A DNA stretch of 25,127 nucleotides. Source: Octopus sinensis. Lineage: Eukaryota. Of the stretch, positions 4,488 to 24,257 are shown piece by piece. Each line of letters opens with the position of its first letter. Position 1 is the stretch's first letter. The position numbers and the translations under genes are program-made. The notes beneath the pieces are model-generated. The model worked only from the letters and a program-made list of their open reading frames with translations, was not told the DNA's origin and searched no databases. The stretch is from positions 1 to 25,127 of the forward strand of contig NW_021836121.1 in assembly GCF_006345805.1 (NCBI RefSeq). Reading direction: 5' to 3'.

Positions 4488-4648
4488 TGGTCCTTACGTT
4501 CTGAGTTCAAATCCCGCCGAAGTCCACTTTGCCTTTCATCCTTTCGGGGTCGATAAAATAGAGTACCAACTGAACGCTGAGGTAGATGCATTCGGTTTAT
4601 CCCCTTCCCTGAAATTGCTGGCCCTGGGTGAAAATTTGAAACTAATAT
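4488..4648 (+). mobile_element. SINE family A, 5'-truncated diverged copy
   Basis: ACGTTCTGAGTTCAAATCCCGCCGAAGTCCACTTTGCCTTTCATCCTTTCGGGGTCGAT matches copies at 8310 and 5486 (rc); B-box-like GAGTTCAAATCC. Confidence 0.85.
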
Positions 4649-5485: not shown

Positions 5486-5710
5486 TATTTCTTTACTACC
5501 CACAAGGGGCTAAACACAGAGGGGACAAACAAGGACAGACAAACGGATTAAGTCGATTATATCGACCCCAGTGTGTAACTGGTTCTTAATTTATCGACCC
5601 CGAAAGGATGAAAGGCAAAGTCGACCTCGGCGGAATTTGAACTCAGAACGTAACGGCAGACAAAATACGGCTACGCATTTCGCCCGGCGTGCTAACGTTT
5701 CTGCCAGCTC
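5486..5710 (-). mobile_element. SINE family A (tRNA-derived head), near full length
   Basis: Reverse complement closely matches 8310-8543 along its whole length. Confidence 0.92.
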
Positions 5711-7132: not shown

Positions 7133-8066
7133 CTGAACCATTTTCTGTAAACAGTCAATGAAAAGACTCTAATAGTATCTTTCGATGTGTAGTGAAGGCG
7201 CATGGCTTAGTGGTTAGGGCATTCAGCTGACGATTGTAAGGTCGCGAGTTCGATTCCCGGCGATGCGTTGTGTCCTTGAGCAAGACACTTTATTTCACGT
7301 TGCTCCAGTCCACTCAGCTGGCAAAAATAAGTTGTACCTGTATTTCAAAGGGCCGGCCTTGTCACACCCTGTGTCACGCTGAATCTCCCTGAGAACTACG
7401 TTAAGGGTACTCGTGTCTGTGGATTGCTCAGTCACTTGCACGTTAATTCCACGAGCAAGCTGTTCCATTGATCGTATCAGCTGGGACCCTCGTCGTCGTA
7501 ACCGACGGAGTGCTCCTATATATATATCTTTCGATGTAGTAACTCATTTATTCAAACATCCCTCGCGATTCAGGAATGAAGCCATTAAATTCTGATTTGG
7601 ATAATTACACGGATGAACCTCCTCAAACGTAATAACAAAAATAATTCATGATAGAAGGACTAAGATTTATTCTAGACGATAACTACTTTATGTTCAATGA
7701 CAACCTTTTCCGTCAAAAAAAAATCTGGGACTGCGATGGGAACGAAAACAGACCCTTCCTTTTCAAATCTACTTATGGGCTATCTAGAACTTACAATTTG
7801 CCAAAATTCGCTGCGAAAATATGGACGCCCTTTCTTCAAATATACAAAAGAAAACGGGAAAGGATACCTCGACAATTGCTTCATTCTATAGAGAATTCTA
7901 TAAAGGAATTTGAAACATTCCTCGATGGAATTAATAAAAATATAGAATTCGCCATAGAATATAGCCATAAGCAATTCTCAATTTTTGGCATTCTAATAAA
8001 GAAAATCAATAACCAAATTGAGACAAACATATACCTACAGATTCTAAACAATATCTTCCACTTAGT
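7133..8066 (+). pseudogene. Decayed Penelope-like element reverse transcriptase fragment (GTAMG type), split by a SINE
   Basis: Peptides LNHFL*TVNEKTLIVSFDV | EAIKF...EGLRFILDDNYFMFND...RQKK-SGTAMGTKTDPSFSNLLMGYLE...YLDNCFIL...IETNIY..TDSKQYL follow PLE RT motif order; several frameshifts and stops. Confidence 0.85.
7194..7524 (+). mobile_element. SINE family C (tRNA-derived) with TSD
   Basis: A-box TGGCTTAGTGG, B-box GAGTTCGATTCC, (TA)n tail; TSD TATCTTTCGATGT(GT)AGT at 7176-7193 and 7525-7540; body similar to 10490-10610. Confidence 0.92.
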
Positions 8067-8094
8067 AAGTAGTAGAAAATCCCCAGCTGGCGAC

Positions 8095-8275
8095 TGGAGG
8101 GGGAGGATGACCTCACAACCAATACGCTGCTGTCAGTGCCGCTGGATGACTGACTCTGGTGATGATGTTATTCCACGCTTTCCGATCCATGGCGCTAGAT
8201 TTAGCATGCTTGAGGTCGAGGCGCTCCGACTCTAGGTCCTCCTCAATTTGTTTTGCTCCAACTTATGCTCGGTAT
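8095..8275 (-). mobile_element. RTE-clade LINE 3' end remnant
   Basis: Minus strand reads SW..QIEEDLESERLDLKHAKSSAMDRKAWNNII, matching the RTE ORF C-terminal W...I..DL...A.DR..W pattern. Confidence 0.6.
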
Positions 8276-8285
8276 CATTCATATA

Positions 8286-8953
8286 CAGGCGCTGGAGGGG
8301 CTGTGTGGTAAGGCGGCGAGCTGGCAGAAACGTTAGCACGCCAGGCGAAATGCTTAGCAGTATTTTGTCTGCCGGTACGTTCTGAGTTCAAATTCCACCG
8401 AGGTCGACTTTGCCTTTCATCCTTTCGGGGTCGATTAAGTAAGTACCAGTTGCGTACTGGGGTCGATGTAATCAACTTAATCCGTTTGTCTGTCCTTGTT
8501 TGTCCCCTCGGTGTGTAGCCCCTTGTGAGCAGTAAAGAAACAAGAAGCTTGCTTCCCAACTACATGGTTCCGGGTTCAGTACCACTGCGAGGCACCTTGG
8601 GCTAAAGTCTGCTACCATAGCCTCGGACCGACCAAAGCCTTGTGTGTTAATTTGATAGCTGGAAACTGAAAGAATCCCGTCGAATATGTGTGTATGCGTG
8701 TTTATTTGTGGTGGGGGTGTCTTTGTGTATTGTGTTTGTCCCCATTACCACCTGACAACTGGTGTGGGTGTGTTTACGTCCCCATAACTTAGCGGTTCGG
8801 CAAAAGAGACCGATAGAATAAGTACTAGGCTTACAAAGAATAAGTCCTAGAGTCGACTTGTTCGTCTAAAAATAAAATCCTTCAAGGCAGCGCTCCAGCG
8901 TGGAAGCAGTCAAATGGCTGAAATCAATGAAAGAATAAAAGAATAAAAGAATA
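8286..8953 (+). mobile_element. SINE family B, full length, interrupted near 8312 by a family A SINE
   Basis: 8286-8312 plus 8545-8953 together match 18731-19121; (AAGAATAA)n tail. Confidence 0.9.
8310..8543 (+). mobile_element. SINE family A, full length, nested in family B
   Basis: AAGGCGGCGAGCTGGCAGAAACGTTAGC...GAGTTCAAATTCC...AGTAAAGAAA; matches 5486-5710 rc and 23102-23333. Confidence 0.93.
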
Positions 8954-10819: not shown

Positions 10820-11312
10820 TATCTATGTTAGCTTTCCTTCATTTAATAGAAATGGTGTTGTATAGCAATTTATCATATAAATTCTTATTAAATGTATACA
10901 GGTTATTAGTCTTATCAGAAAATGCAAAATTGTTTTTAGAACTTCTAAAATTTCTAATATCAGATTTTAGTTAAGCTTGCAAATGGTTACAGTACTTACG
11001 GAATCTTATATTAGTTACCAAATCAAGGAGGTCTGCCTCAAAAGAAGCTAAATATCTTATCTTAAATCCCAACCTTCCGTGAAAGTAGATGTTAGCGTCG
11101 CATCAAAAAATAAAACCTTCAATCTCATCTGTCTCACGAAGACTTCAACTTCCTCTAGAAGCATCCTAAGATAAATGTTATTCGTTGGTGTAAGTAAAAT
11201 TTTTATGAAGCATCCCGTATGATATAAATCCATAATAGTGTGTATAAATTTGCGGTAGAACCCCACGCATTTGGAGGTATATAGTTTATAGATCTAATAC
11301 TGGTAGACTCAG

Positions 11313-11637: not shown

Positions 11638-12098
11638 ACTGGTAGACTCAGCAAAAATGTATTCTATCCATTGCGAGATAAATATCAATTTAATACGCAA
11701 CCGAAAGAGCTACGAATAGCTTCAGGCTTTTAAGATACTTTAACTAGGCATATTTATAAAAACACGCCATGTATCTGTAAGCTATTTTTCAGGATCTTTT
11801 TATGTGTTATATATGTTTTAAAAACAAGGATGGCGGATAGTGAGAAAATAAGAAGAAAAAAAAAACGAAAAGAAAACCGCGAAGAAAGTCGGTGCAAAAA
11901 TCAAAACGAGAAGGAAGACACAAAAGCAACAAAACTAAGATCTTGATCCTCTCTGGTTGCAGAAAGCACAATTAATGCAGCTGATATAGAAGAAAATAAC
12001 AAATAAAAATGTCAAAGTCTGCGAGACAGCAACTCGGTTTGGAGCGAGCGATGTCCTCCATTTTTATTAAAACAATATGTGTATATATATATTTATAT

Positions 12099-12250
12099 AC
12101 CGGAGTAAGCATATAAATGTGAAACAAGGTGGAAAAAAAGAGTACTCAAATACCTGAGGTAGAGTAATATGCTTTATTTAAAAGCAGCAGAAATATAACA
12201 AAAGCTGTTACTCGGAGTTTCATGTTCCCGTTCGTCGGACAGTTTTGTTA
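12099..12250 (-). mobile_element. Probable PLE pLTR fragment in (TA)n; related partial copies at 16428-16506 and 16567-16671
   Basis: ATAAATGTGAAAC...AGTACTC.AATA...GAGGTAGAGTAATATGCTTTATT occurs three times in the window; this copy ends in a hammerhead motif. Confidence 0.65.
12196..12250 (-). ncRNA. Minimal type I hammerhead ribozyme motif, U4C core variant
   Basis: Minus strand TAACAAAACTGT-CCGACGA-A(CGGGAACA)T-GAAA-CTC(C)GAG-TA-ACAG(C)TTTTGTTA: 12-bp stem I with one bulge, 1-bp stem II, palindromic stem III, GUA site. Confidence 0.7.
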
Positions 12251-12278
12251 AATATATTGCAGTGCTTTTAAATAAAGT

Positions 12279-12290
12279 ATATATATAATA

Positions 12291-12327
<37 letters not shown>

Positions 12328-12383
12328 ATATTATATATATATAATATATATATATTATATATATATATATATATATGTCTATG

Positions 12384-12438
<55 letters not shown>

Positions 12439-12525
12439 CATATATTATACATATCTATATAAATACCTATATATATATATATATACATATATATTATACA
12501 TATATATATATATATATATATATCT

Positions 12526-12590
<65 letters not shown>
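12279..12590. repeat. Long imperfect (TA)n
   Basis: Direct reading. Confidence 0.95.
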
Positions 12591-12592
<2 letters not shown>

Positions 12593-12734
12593 TGATGTAT
12601 TTTACCTGTTAACAATTAACACGGATAAATGAATGAATAGTTACCAGGGCAGCAAAAATCTCACAAGTAAAGATGTTGTAACTCCTTGTTTATAAGGTTG
12701 AAACTGATTCGTGTTTACGTTGAATATTTGAATA

Positions 12735-12854
12735 ATATGAATAAAAAATGGAGTTAACGCAGGTTTAAACAAGTATTTTTACTTTCTACATATGTTTCAA
12801 ACATATGTAGAAAGTAAAAATACTTGTTTAAACCTGCGTTAACTCCATTTTTTA

Positions 12855-12861
<7 letters not shown>
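12735..12861. repeat. Perfect palindrome, 63-bp arms, 1-nt centre (12798)
   Basis: 12735-12797 is the exact reverse complement of 12799-12861; lies at the end of a probable pLTR fragment (12591-12798) between (TA)n tracts. Confidence 0.95.
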
Positions 12862-12890
<29 letters not shown>

Positions 12891-12893
<3 letters not shown>

Positions 12894-14022
12894 ATAAAAC
12901 GGTAAGATAACAAAAGAAAGAAAGAGACCTCAATATTATGTAAATAGAGGAATTTATCTATACAATATGTTACATTACTCGGTAGTCAAGATAAAACTCT
13001 GAGTTTCAGATGCCGAAGTGGAAATCCACACACCATCTCTTCGGTTATCTGGCTATTTGAAAACGTTATGAAAAAATACCGTTAAAAATGAAGGGAAATT
13101 ACTCTGTTATAACTCTGCTTTACCTGCGTACTTATACATCGCTCGCATTTTTCGTCATAAAAATTATATAAAAATACATAAAAATATATAAAAATATAAA
13201 AATATATAAATCTTCTTGGGACATAACACAGAAAGCATGTTCTATCCGTTTTCTTTAGGGGACCAAAAACGTAACAGAAATTTAGTCACATGTGGGCATG
13301 ATCCGAAAAGCTCTGTCCTTGTATTTAGACATGTGGTAGGGTCTAAGCTGCTTTTCCAGATAAGCCATCTCTCCATGTCGCATAAACCGCACCTTCCGCT
13401 GCCGTTAGTGTAGGGCTTACATCTGGCCAAAATCTTCCATTGTATGTTATAATCGACACCTTTATCTCTTAAAGACCAAATATTTGGATAATTGTGTCGC
13501 TTTTCTTTTGTTCCAGTGCCTAAAGCTCAAAGTGTGGTTATTGAACCTGGCCTTGAAATTACTCTCTGTCAGGCCCACGTATTTCTCTCGTCGAAACGGT
13601 GTCTTTAGTGGTTATAGAGTTTACGGTAGCTTCATATATGATGGTCTTGGACATGCAAGCTCCATTTAGCGGGCACAATTCTTTATTCCTGCATGAACAG
13701 CCTGTTTTCTTCTTGTGTTTTTTGTATGTTATGATTGATTATGTTTTTAAAATTGGTAGTTGAACTAAAACTAATTTTTAAATTGTGTCTATTGAAGAGT
13801 TTCCTATAAGCATGGTTAACTGGAAAATGTCTATCTATCAGTGCTAGGAAATATTTACCTATATTGAAGGCCACCTCGGGTGAGTAAGGGGGCAACGCTA
13901 TTGAAGATGTCCTCATTAGATGAGAGGCTAGAAATCCTCTTACTAATATTTTAAACTAAATTTTTGAATACTATAGGGGGATGGCATGAACCTACATTAA
14001 TATAACTTAGTCTATCATTGGG
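12891..14022 (-). mobile_element. Penelope-like element, inverted 3' copy (RT thumb/linker, GIY-YIG endonuclease, 3' repeat)
   Basis: 12955-14022 is a near-identical reverse complement of 14301-15481 except for a 121-bp deletion; encodes ...ARCKPYTNGSGRCGLCDMERWLIW...LNTRTELFGSCPH. Confidence 0.93.
12989..13050 (-). ncRNA. Type I hammerhead ribozyme motif, U4C core variant, in the PLE 3' repeat
   Basis: Minus strand AGATAA-CCGAAGA-GATG..GTGGA(TT)TCCAC..CATC-T-GAAA-CTC(A)GAG-TT-TTATCT; 6-bp stem I, GUU site; one extra base before GAAA. Confidence 0.65.
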
Positions 14023-15481
14023 TTCATATGATGGGGCAGGCATCTGTGATCTAATTGGACTCTTTCTCCTAGATACCTTCGGTAAGACATTCCCTAACGT
14101 ACATTTCGCCATCTACAAGAGAGATGCCCTCGCCTTAACAGCTAATACAAATGACCAGCACAAGATCGTTTTAGGAAGGATATATCCAGTTAATGAAACA
14201 CTTCGGACTTAGTATAACTATAGACACTAACCTGACGGTTGTCAATTTTCTTAGACGTTTCCTTAGATCTTAATAATAATATTTTAAGCCTTATAGGAAG
14301 CCCAATGATAGACTAAGTTATATTAATGTAGGTTCATGCCATCCCCCTATAGTATTCAAAAATTTATTAAAAATATTAGTAAGAGGATTTCTAGCCTCTC
14401 ATCTAATGAGGACATCTTCAATAGCGTTGCCCCAGTTTATAATAAAGCTTTAAAAGATAGTGGTTTTAGCGAAAAATAAATTATACACCTATCACCAGCC
14501 CAACAGTAAGGAAAAGGAATAATGAAATAGGAAGGTCATCTGGTTTTACGCCCCCTTACTCACCCGAGGTGGCCTTCAATATAGGTAAATATTTCCTAGC
14601 ACTGATAGATAGACATTTTCCAGTTAACCATGCTTATAGGAAACTCTTCAATAGACACAATTTAAAAATTAGTTTAGTTCAATACCAATTTTAAAAACAT
14701 AATCAATCATAACATACAAAAAACACAAGAAGAAAACAGCTGTTCATGCAGGAATAAAGAATTGTGCCCGCTAAATGGAGCTTGCATGTCCAAGACCATC
14801 ATATATGAAGCTACCGTAAACTCTATAACCACTAAAGACACCGTTTCGACGAAGAAATACGTGGGCCTGACAGAGAGTAATTTCAAGGCCAGGTTCAATA
14901 ACCACACTTTGAGCTTTAGGCACTGGAACAAAGAAAGCGACACAATTATCCAATCATATTTGGTCTTTAAGAGATAAAGGTGTCGATTATAACATACAAT
15001 GGAAGATTTTGGCCAGATGTAAGCCCTACACTAACGGCAGCGGAAGGTGCGGTTTTATGCGACATGGCTTATCTGGAAAAGCAGCTTAGACCCTACCACA
15101 TGTCTAAATACAAGGACAGAGCTTTTCGGATCATGCCCACATGTGACTAAATTTCTGTTACGTTTTTGGTCCCCTAAAGAAAACGGATAGAACATGCTTT
15201 CTGTGTTATGTCCCAAGAAGATTTTATATATTTTTATATATTTTTATATATTTTTTATGTATTTTTATATAATTTTTATGACGAAAAATGCGAGCGATGT
15301 ATAAGTACGCAGGCAAAGCAGAGTTATAACAGAGTAATTTCCCTTCATTTTTAACGGTATTTTTTCATAACGTTTTCAAATAGCCAGATAACCGAAGAGA
15401 TGTGTTGTGGATTTTCACTTCGGCATCTGAAACTCAGAGTTTTATCTTGACTACCGAGTAATGTAACATATTGTATAGATA
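14017..15481 (+). mobile_element. Penelope-like element, 5'-truncated forward copy (RT C-terminal half + GIY-YIG), frameshifted
   Basis: GSYDGAGICDLIGLFLL...IYKRDAL (degenerate YRDD), VVNFLDV, CSCRNKELCPLNGACMSKTIIYEATV...KYVGLTESNFKARFNNHTLSFRH (GIY-YIG), C-terminal C..C/C.H. Possibly Nematis-type (inference). Confidence 0.93.
15386..15447 (+). ncRNA. Type I hammerhead ribozyme motif, U4C core variant (mirror copy of 12989-13050)
   Basis: AGATAA-CCGAAGA-GATG...CATC-T-GAAA-CTC(A)GAG-TT-TTATCT. Confidence 0.65.
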
Positions 15482-15530
15482 TATATTATATATATATATA
15501 TATTATATATATATATATATATTATATATA

Positions 15531-15610: not shown

Positions 15611-15681
15611 AATTCCAAACTACAGGGAAAATTCAATTTAGCAATTGTAAATCAAATTTCACAATATATAACATATATATA

Positions 15682-15938
15682 TAATTAAGAGAAATAACCT
15701 CTATTAAGTAATTCAACAGATAGTGAAAAATATTTTCAATATTAAAACATATAGAAAAAAAATTTTAATATATCATATTAAATATTATTCTAAAATCACT
15801 AAATTAAATAAACGCTCGTTGTCAATTTAATGATTATTTAATTTAGTGATTTTTAGAATAATTTTTTCTATGATTTAATATAGATAATATCTTTCACTAT
15901 CAATTGAATTACTTAATAGAGGTTATTTCTCATAATTA
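15682..15938. repeat. Imperfect AT-rich inverted repeat, arms ~130 and ~105 bp, 22-nt spacer
   Basis: GAGAAATAACCTCTATTAAGTAATTCAA...ATCACTAAATTAAATAA mirrored by TTATTTAATTTAGTGAT...TTGAATTACTTAATAGAGGTTATTTCTC. Confidence 0.88.
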
Positions 15939-16094
15939 CATACATACATACATACACACATACACACAAACACACACACACACCCACACACACACACACA
16001 ACACACACGCACACACACACACCACGCACACACACACACACACACACACACAACACACACACACACACCACACATATATATATATATATATATA

Positions 16095-16320: not shown

Positions 16321-16354
16321 CATATATACATACATATATAATATGTATATATAA

Positions 16355-16398
<44 letters not shown>

Positions 16399-16686
16399 AT
16401 CTATATATATATATATACCAGAAATATACCAGAATAAGCGCATAAATGTGAAACAAGTTGGGAAAAATAGTACTCGAATATCAGAGGTAGAGTAATATGC
16501 TTTATTCTCCTTCCTACTTGTGGAGAGTCGCTCAAATTTTCTAAACAAAAAAAGGGAGTAGGTTACACCAAAGTAAGTACATAAATGTGAAACGAGGATG
16601 AGGACAGTACTCGAATACCGGAGGTAGAGTAATATGCTTTATTATTAAAGCTGCAAAAGCATCATAGAAATATCAGGAAAATCTCT

Positions 16687-23100: not shown

Positions 23101-23101
23101 T

Positions 23102-23333
23102 AAGGACGGTGAGCTGGCAGAATTGTTAAAACGTCGGACAATATGCTTAGCGGTATTTCGTTTGTCTGAGTTCAAATTCCGCTGAGGTCGACTATAACCT
23201 TTCATCCATATGGGGTCGATAAAATATGTACCAGTTAAGCACTGGGGTCGAAGTAATCGAAAAACCTCCTCCACCCCAAACTTCAGGCCTTGTGCCTATA
23301 GTAGAAAGGATCATTATTACCATTATTATTATT
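23102..23333 (+). mobile_element. SINE family A variant with (ATT)n tail
   Basis: Similar to 8310-8470, with a different 3' end. Confidence 0.88.
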
Positions 23334-23421
23334 AAGGCGGCGAGCTGACAGAATCGTTACCACGCCGGTCAAAATGCTTAGTGGCACTTCATCCGTCTGC
23401 ATGTTCTGGGTTCAAATTCCC
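23334..23421 (+). mobile_element. SINE family A head, tandem after the previous copy
   Basis: AAGGCGGCGAGCTGACAGAATCGTTA...GGGTTCAAATTCC. Confidence 0.85.
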
Positions 23422-23507: not shown

Positions 23508-23654
23508 TAAAATCAAAATAAGCAACAAGGATATCCAGAAATAATGCAGTACGATCGTTTCATGCAGCTCCATTTAATTGAACTTTAAATGGAGTTGTAT
23601 GAAACGATCGTACTGCATTACCTCTGGATATCCTTGTTGCTTATTTTGATTTTA
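23508..23654. repeat. Inverted repeat, 70-bp arms, 7-nt loop, 4 mismatches
   Basis: 23508-23577 versus 23585-23654; followed by (TA)n. Confidence 0.93.
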
Positions 23655-24048: not shown

Positions 24049-24257
24049 ATTGTGGGTAAGGCCAGAACAGTGCGAAGTAAATCCCAAGAAAACAAATATA
24101 TGAATTAATGTAGACTTACCTTATATTCAATATTTCTTGAAAATGTAGTCATAACCCCGAAATATTGAATGCAAGGTAAGTCTACATTAGTTCACATATT
24201 TGTTTTCTTGTGATTTGCCTTGCATTTACTTCACATTGTTTTGGCCTTACCCACAAT
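24049..24257. mobile_element. Fold-back MITE-like inverted repeat
   Basis: Arms 24049-24136 and 24159-24257 (11-nt indel, several transitions), 22-nt spacer; TA on the left of TTGTGGG, TC on the right of CCCACAA. Confidence 0.75.

Follow-up and report, generated by a model that had tools for sequence, protein, structure and literature searches.

The closest described relatives of the sequences reported here are the hammerhead ribozymes of Penelope-like elements (PLEs). The minimal PLE hammerheads of Cervera and de la Pena (2014; PMC4209133) are likely dimeric and weakly active, with a tiny palindromic stem III, predicted activity as dimers and many dispersed, truncated copies; the consensus given there is CUGANGA-H with a G10.1-C11.1 pair, and the family-level core change that is mentioned is U3-A8. 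The hammerheads of Hydra-clade PLEs (Craig et al., 2021; PMC8557442) lie in the 3' untranslated region (UTR), are of type I and have a palindromic stem III with a 1-nt loop; the core descriptor of that study is ^cuganga, and 26 of 26 Hydra rows (25 families) in its File S2 read ctga. A third case, the hammerhead of a Poseidon PLE of Anolis, lies near the tail region and serves as a model for protein-assisted, dispensable cleavage, since according to Frangieh et al. (2024; PMC11167929) it needs the element's protein while cleavage mutants still insert in vitro; it belongs to another clade, has a canonical core and overlaps the start of the open reading frame (ORF). Here we analyze a 25,127-nt stretch of the Octopus sinensis genome (assembly GCF_006345805.1, contig NW_021836121.1, positions 1 to 25,127; hereafter the window) in which the hammerheads of two PLE families, L and S, have the core CCGANGA, that is, C rather than U at core position 4 (C4 rather than U4). 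Unlike the Hydra rows, four families here (L, S, T and F) have masters with C4.

The substitution itself has precedents, a point that the preliminary description of this locus left undecided. A viroid U4C variant had considerably reduced activity in vitro and still supported infectivity (Ambros and Flores, 1998, cited in PMC3088659), and the primer table (Table S1) of Perreault et al. (2011; PMC3088659) holds an Aedes repeat-copy construct written 'cCgauga'. These are single variants, whereas here the same change is fixed in master elements that left thousands of copies, and both its gain and its loss can be traced. In the present elements C4 is fixed in masters, is reversible, and occurs in a fold that is still conserved. 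The literature searched contained no report of family-level C4 in PLEs; Lunse et al. (2017), as the likeliest place for one, and a supplement file of the Cervera study may hold such cases.

The window contains the three CCGANGA motifs that had been noticed there:

12197..12250, minus strand: motif 1, a type I hammerhead of family S, subfamily S1c, core CCGACGA
12989..13050, minus strand: motif 2, a family-L hammerhead of type I with core CCGAAGA, from subfamily i, the youngest
15386..15447, plus strand: motif 3, the family-L hammerhead of motif 2 repeated in the opposite arm

All three sequences are present, but a single inverted insertion contributes both motif 2 and motif 3, one in each arm, so that the window has two independent motifs rather than three. 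The pattern CCGANGA-N6-34-GAAACTCNGAGT matches three times in the window and in none of 200 Markov-1 resamples, which excludes chance. Two distinct families had been proposed, and their proteins are indeed only 42% identical; that these are PLE-borne minimal type I hammerheads with a palindromic stem III also held. An assembly error or a copy-specific mutation as the source of C4 is ruled out by position 15393 (C4 of motif 3), which is identical in the contigs of four of four other sequencing runs, and by 8,471 genomic copies; the upper stem II of motif 3 differs from those contigs by a 1-nt deletion and a C>T change.

In motif 1, C3 is at 12238, C4 at 12237 and H17 (A) at 12209, with cleavage predicted after A12209; stem I is CUGU/ACAG with an extension, stem II is ACG-GGAA-CAU followed by GAAA, and stem III is ACUC-C-GAGU. 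Motif 2 has C3 at 13044, C4 at 13043 and H17 (U) at 12995, the predicted cleavage site, with a long stem II and a stem III of ACUC-A-GAGU; the corresponding positions in motif 3 are 15392, 15393 and U15441, after which cleavage is predicted. The stems had been described as still pairing, which is true apart from a C.A mismatch that breaks one of the three pairs of stem II in motif 1, where the subfamily sequence is ACG-GGAA-CGT; this is probably CpG decay of a single copy. The core is canonical at every strict-core site other than position 4 (C3, G5, A6, G8, A9, G12, A13, A14, A15.1-U16.1 and H17 are all present, and invariant across subfamilies), but motifs 2 and 3 carry a second departure, absent from the preliminary description: one extra pyrimidine (U) between the GAUG/CAUC helix and GAAA. 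The strict core calls for U4, where all three motifs have C4. Compared with the minimal PLE hammerheads, both families show U4C and lack the extra H after A9 with G10.1-C11.1: positions 10.1/11.1 are A-U and later A.G and A.A in family S, whereas in family L they are G-C and stem II carries its additional base on the 3' side. The three helices around the core are present, with 91.6% of cells paired in an alignment of families L and F, and the palindromic stem III, ACUC-N-GAGU, could pair between two copies in predicted double-hammerhead folds. The CTGT/ACAG stem I of family S and its ACTC-N-GAGT-A recur in two of the Hydra rows, Hydra-2_aMil and Hydra-2_aJap, and Hydra-1_oBim has a different stem III, acca-a-tggt (PMC8557442, File S2).

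To ask whether C4 is the consensus, we counted pattern matches in the 2.72-Gb genome, using the reversed pattern as control; tallies of listed matches were counted by eye. The CCGA core has 8,471 matches (control 0), CTGA 7,207 (control 4), CCAA 755 (control 4) and C[AG]GA 335 (control 11), so that U4 occurs in 7,207 of about 16,800 pattern-matching copies. Since C4-G5 is a CpG, decay of C4 copies yields TG and CA in about equal numbers; the mirror product CCAA implies that about 750 U4 copies are decayed C4 and that most of the remaining U4 copies descend from true U4 masters, which rules out U4 as mere CpG decay. Among the first 100 of 1,385 matches listed for subfamily S1, 80 were CG, 9 TG, 7 CA and 4 other, a symmetric decay that indicates a C4 master, while the first 100 of 1,390 listed for the older L subfamilies comprised 91 TG, 3 CG, no CA and 6 other, indicating U4 masters. 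C4 is therefore a true master sequence, and the window copies come from subfamilies in which it is the consensus. Masters carry either U or C at position 4, never A or G. A lineage-wide variant, which the preliminary description had thought possible, is not what these counts show: both families include large U4 subfamilies, and switches run both ways.

Family L records a recent switch from U4 to C4. Its tree (89 selected copies of the 133 collected, 101 columns, many forks unresolved) is a ladder that begins with U4 subfamilies a-e, which lie 5-7% from their own column majority, and continues through f1 (U4, 3.1%), f2 (C4, 3.5%), g and h to the youngest, i, j and k (0-2%), the C4 subfamilies lying 0-4% from the column majority. 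The switch falls between f1 and f2, which are near-identical, with two differing sites in the motif region. Among the first 100 of 288 matches listed for the transitional group, 56 combine U4 with A at the stem III loop base (L3), 31 C4 with A, 9 U4 with G and 1 C4 with G, with 3 other and no CA, indicating that the loop base changed from G to A before C4 arose; around the switch a stem I pair went from G.A to G.U to A-U. We rejected A-to-I editing as the source of C4, because the substitution lists between L subfamilies, compared by inspection, contain no T>C wave.

Family S records the opposite. C4 extends from the oldest, heavily decayed copies through S2, and U4 occurs in the youngest subfamily, S3, which also lacks the 10.1/11.1 pair, so that S2>S3 is a reversion. 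Of 30 S copies chosen by their 3' flank alone, 24 bore the S3 marker and 6 the S2 marker; U4 accompanied the former in 21 cases and C4 the latter in 4, and the remaining copies were truncated or decayed. Between them, the two families document a minimum of one gain of C4 (L f1>f2) and one loss (S2>S3). Two older families also have C4 masters: family T (109 matches) mixes U4 and C4 subfamilies, and family F, the oldest L-related family, has 8 matches (5 CG, 2 TG and 1 CA). As an outgroup we searched 77 metagenome loci encoding relatives, with core positions 3 and 4 left free; a motif was found in 25 loci, 24 of them CUGA (19 distinct) and one spurious, with no CCGA among the 25. In the protein tree, families L and S belong to a single small subclade that also includes unnamed proteins, and holding the two together was not rejected (p-AU 0.11). 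C4 in both may therefore derive from a shared ancestor and have later reverted.

We asked whether the fold remained under constraint after C4 was fixed. In family S, comparisons of old with young groups from the C4 period showed no difference at 26-27 structural sites, against 26 of 116, 24 of 115 and 28 of 90 differing flank sites (p=0.002, 0.004 and 0.0003; groups of 2-5 copies, comparisons not independent). In family L, f2 differed from i at 0 of 36 structural and 10 of 74 flank sites (p=0.015), from j at 0 of 36 and 15 of 70 (p=0.001; four of the 15 are one gap), and from k at 2 of 36 and 12 of 69 (p=0.077; both structural differences are gap placement). Core and stems that stay unchanged while flanks drift indicate a fold still under selection, and the variable sites in the S motif include N7, the GNRA loop and the L3 base, which a hammerhead leaves free. 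The stems also covary, as the preliminary description had asked to be checked: in an alignment of 16 copies from families L and F, two-sided change is seen in 7 of the 21 pairs, compared with 0 of 500 shuffles and 0-2 in slid controls, although the relatedness of the sequences inflates this test.

Rfam covariance models gave no hammerhead among the 150 rows listed of 166 for the window, and none in 125 of 125 rows for five loci including U4 copies; because even U4 copies go without a match, the models probably miss the entire type. The expectation that CUGANGA-based searches would miss C4 is borne out by the Craig et al. descriptor and by the final filter of Perreault et al. (PMC3088659), which rejects any core change, but does not extend to all searches, because CYGANGA already serves as a descriptor, and variation between C and T has been observed (PMC13481778).

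We favor, with moderate confidence, the reading that the C4 motifs are retained but weakened ribozymes tolerated by transposition, which still cut themselves at a low rate in double-hammerhead form, perhaps aided by protein. C4 became fixed in master elements, which then made thousands of copies. Under this reading, two copies would pair through the palindromic stem III, swap stem I strands and build two cores; U4C would lower the cleavage rate, and weak cleavage would suffice if uncut RNA is the main insertion template. Selection would then keep the fold while tolerating either pyrimidine at position 4, and the element's own protein may assist cleavage. C4 hammerheads are probably weakly active. 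Co-folding of two copies predicts a double hammerhead with intermolecular stems III and I. An S2a copy (C4) and S3 have this structure as their predicted dimer minimum, while for S1c and L-f2 it is 1.0 and 2.4 kcal/mol, respectively, less favorable than the minimum. Short-window folds had suggested that pairing with CUUCGG of stem II locks the C4 core; we dropped this idea, because the minimum fold is a different one once the full stem I is included.

A number of observations count against weak dimeric cleavage. For L-f1, L-i and S2b the predicted double hammerhead is 5.5-6.0 kcal/mol less favorable than the dimer minimum, and cis-dimers need same-strand tandem pairs, which are rare: of 77 neighboring motif pairs in the collected loci, 65 are inverted and just 10 share a strand. 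Among the first 100 S2/S3 3' ends listed, no more than 2 stop at the predicted cleavage site; with no truncation peak there, cleaved RNA has left no clear genomic footprint. Young L motifs add the extra pyrimidine before G12, have U at H17 and are eroding in mid-stem II, and young S motifs weaken progressively at 10.1/11.1. A deep scan of another hammerhead found all single mutants of the CUGA turn low in activity (PMC9901934). The figure of inactive RNAs in PMC3088659 has two Aedes entries, for two variant constructs, from which the type I cCgauga construct is probably in the inactive set. Finally, the constraint test in L is weaker for subfamily k, the groups compared hold just 2-13 copies, and patterns that fix the core were used to collect many of the loci and could hide broken subfamilies; this was checked in part, and none was seen in the flank-anchored S sample. 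The conservation of the fold could also reflect recognition by a protein rather than catalysis.

That last possibility can be stated as an explanation in its own right, tenable if unlikely: C4 motifs no longer cleave, and selection preserves their shape because the element's reverse transcriptase (RT) and endonuclease use it near the 3' end as a signal for binding or initiation, leaving position 4 free. The unimpaired insertion of PLE cleavage mutants in vitro would fit, as would the lack of RNA-seq ends at the cut site of another PLE (PMC11167929), the low activity of CUGA and Aedes variants, the missing truncation peak, the loss of 10.1/11.1 pairing in S2b and S3, and the success of Naiad PLEs, which thrive without canonical hammerheads (PMC8557442). 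Against it, every subfamily retains G5, G8, G12, A13, A14, the C3-G8 pair and A, C or U at H17, which fits catalysis, and the masters have U or C at position 4 but never A or G. That the motifs are dead relics in neutral drift, with C4 just the first hit, we regard as very improbable; several weakening changes do pile up in young subfamilies, but the absence of change at 26-36 structural sites against 14-31% in flanks largely refutes it, and both the compensatory changes that stem I underwent around the switch and the retention of C4 through the long history of S speak against it.

Two further explanations involve misfolding of the core. We think it distinctly unlikely that C4 was useful in itself, by breaking a predicted mispairing of CUGA with the UCAG of the stem III palindrome when L3 is A, at a cost in chemistry, with the reverse holding for L3=G. 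In monomers, U>C lowers the predicted penalty for freeing the core by 1.7-3.4 kcal/mol when L3 is A and raises it by 1.1-2.2 kcal/mol when L3 is G, a pattern seen in 11 of 12 scaffolds; it agrees with the order of changes in L, and with family T, where L3=A accompanies C4 while G or an AA loop accompanies U4, and no C4 master with G was seen. However, the youngest and very abundant S3 is U4 with A, as are outgroup loci L239, L252 and L285, S1 and F combine C4 with U or C at L3, where little gain is predicted, and later changes in L raise the penalty again; in addition, independent events are few and the energies leave out tertiary structure. The idea thus fits L and T but not S3, S1, F or the three outgroups, and we rank it as a rival to tolerated weak cleavage. 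A more speculative reading, which we think unlikely, is that in the Hydra-type PLEs of this lineage position 4 is an evolvable tuning site, at which U and C have flipped several times together with the stem III loop base and thereby avoided a CUGA:UCAG misfold, the C4 hammerheads being functional and protein-assisted.

The hammerheads sit in the 3' UTR of elements with a single ORF that encodes an RT followed by a C-terminal GIY-YIG endonuclease (508 aa at locus L132 for family L, 723 aa at locus L135 for family S), and in family L the motif lies about 200 nt past the stop codon and about 45 nt ahead of the 3' end. The window holds the following parts of such elements:

12082..12280, minus strand: family-S insertion, severely 5'-truncated, in (TA)n; 12082-12246 is 87% identical to locus L135
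12871-15484: family-L insertion with a broken 3' part of the RT-endonuclease ORF
12871..13893, minus strand: left inverted arm of the family-L insertion, with the endonuclease-coding 3' part and the 3' UTR with motif 2; 97.9% to locus L132
14019..15484, plus strand: right arm of the family-L insertion, with the RT-thumb, linker and endonuclease region and the 3' UTR; 94.9% to locus L132
14690..14974, plus strand: CxCX5C linker (CSCRNKELC) and start of the GIY-YIG endonuclease, intact in L132

The family-L arms are 97% complementary (12952-13184 and 15252-15484); the left has an optional tail at about 12871-12951, and the right is 5'-truncated and frame-shifted and ends in (TA)n. After the linker fragment at 14690..14974, CxxC and CxH motifs follow in other frames, and Pfam GIY-YIG matches it at E=0.0024, below the curated cut-off, a weak match seen for family L only. 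The family-S insertion consists of a short inverted 3'-end copy, the hammerhead, the 3' end and a tail of about 70 nt. Hydra-clade PLEs are marked by a CxCX5C linker, CxxC and CxH around conserved E and N, RWK, DKT and (TA)n (PMC8557442). Both families insert into (TA)n; family L has CSCRNKELC, CGLC and CPH, and family S has CNCKSESSC, CKLC and CRH together with LRWK and SDKT, family L being known here without its N-terminus. By sequence, L and S are PLEs with Hydra-clade motifs, an assignment made from the motifs. The youngest C4 subfamily of L has long open ORFs (508 aa), and S3 (e.g., L135:3159-5327) combines a 723-aa open ORF and canonical U4 with a stem II of only 2 bp, A.A at 10.1/11.1, and thousands of near-identical copies.

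S insertions often start with an inverted 3' end joined exactly at the 5' strand of stem I (loci L032-L058 and motif 1), which suggests template switching guided by stem I complementarity. Two further family-S remnants of the 3' end and tail (16324-16506 and 16564-16658, 77-80% to L135) gave no hammerhead match, and a decayed fragment on the minus strand at 10848-11203 resembles the N-terminal part of the family-S ORF (36-41%, tblastn) and is probably, from this similarity, an older Hydra-type PLE of another family. A 196-aa open frame at 7645-8235 (plus strand) resembles a PLE-type RT fragment by eye; a Pfam search of this frame returned nothing relevant. Directly left of the family-L insertion lies a near-perfect 134-nt palindrome (12732-12865), which seems to be flanking DNA duplicated by fold-back where the element inserted, with similar palindromes at 15674-15946, 23508-23654 and 24079-24216. 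A dispersed repeat has two inverted copies (5488-5710 and 8318-8540, 92%) and partial copies at 4494-4568 and 23101-23420.

PLE hammerheads may be an essential processing step, a passenger or a protein-binding signal. Here, successive masters differ at one core base considered invariant, in both directions, and the near-identical sister subfamilies L-f1 (U4) and L-f2 (C4) provide natural matched pairs for asking how much cleavage a PLE needs. Searches restricted to the strict core would lose more than half of this hammerhead type in this genome. If position 4 is a tuning site, the thousands of dated copies would record epistasis within the core of a catalytic RNA, and existing counts of hammerheads in retroelements would widely be too low.

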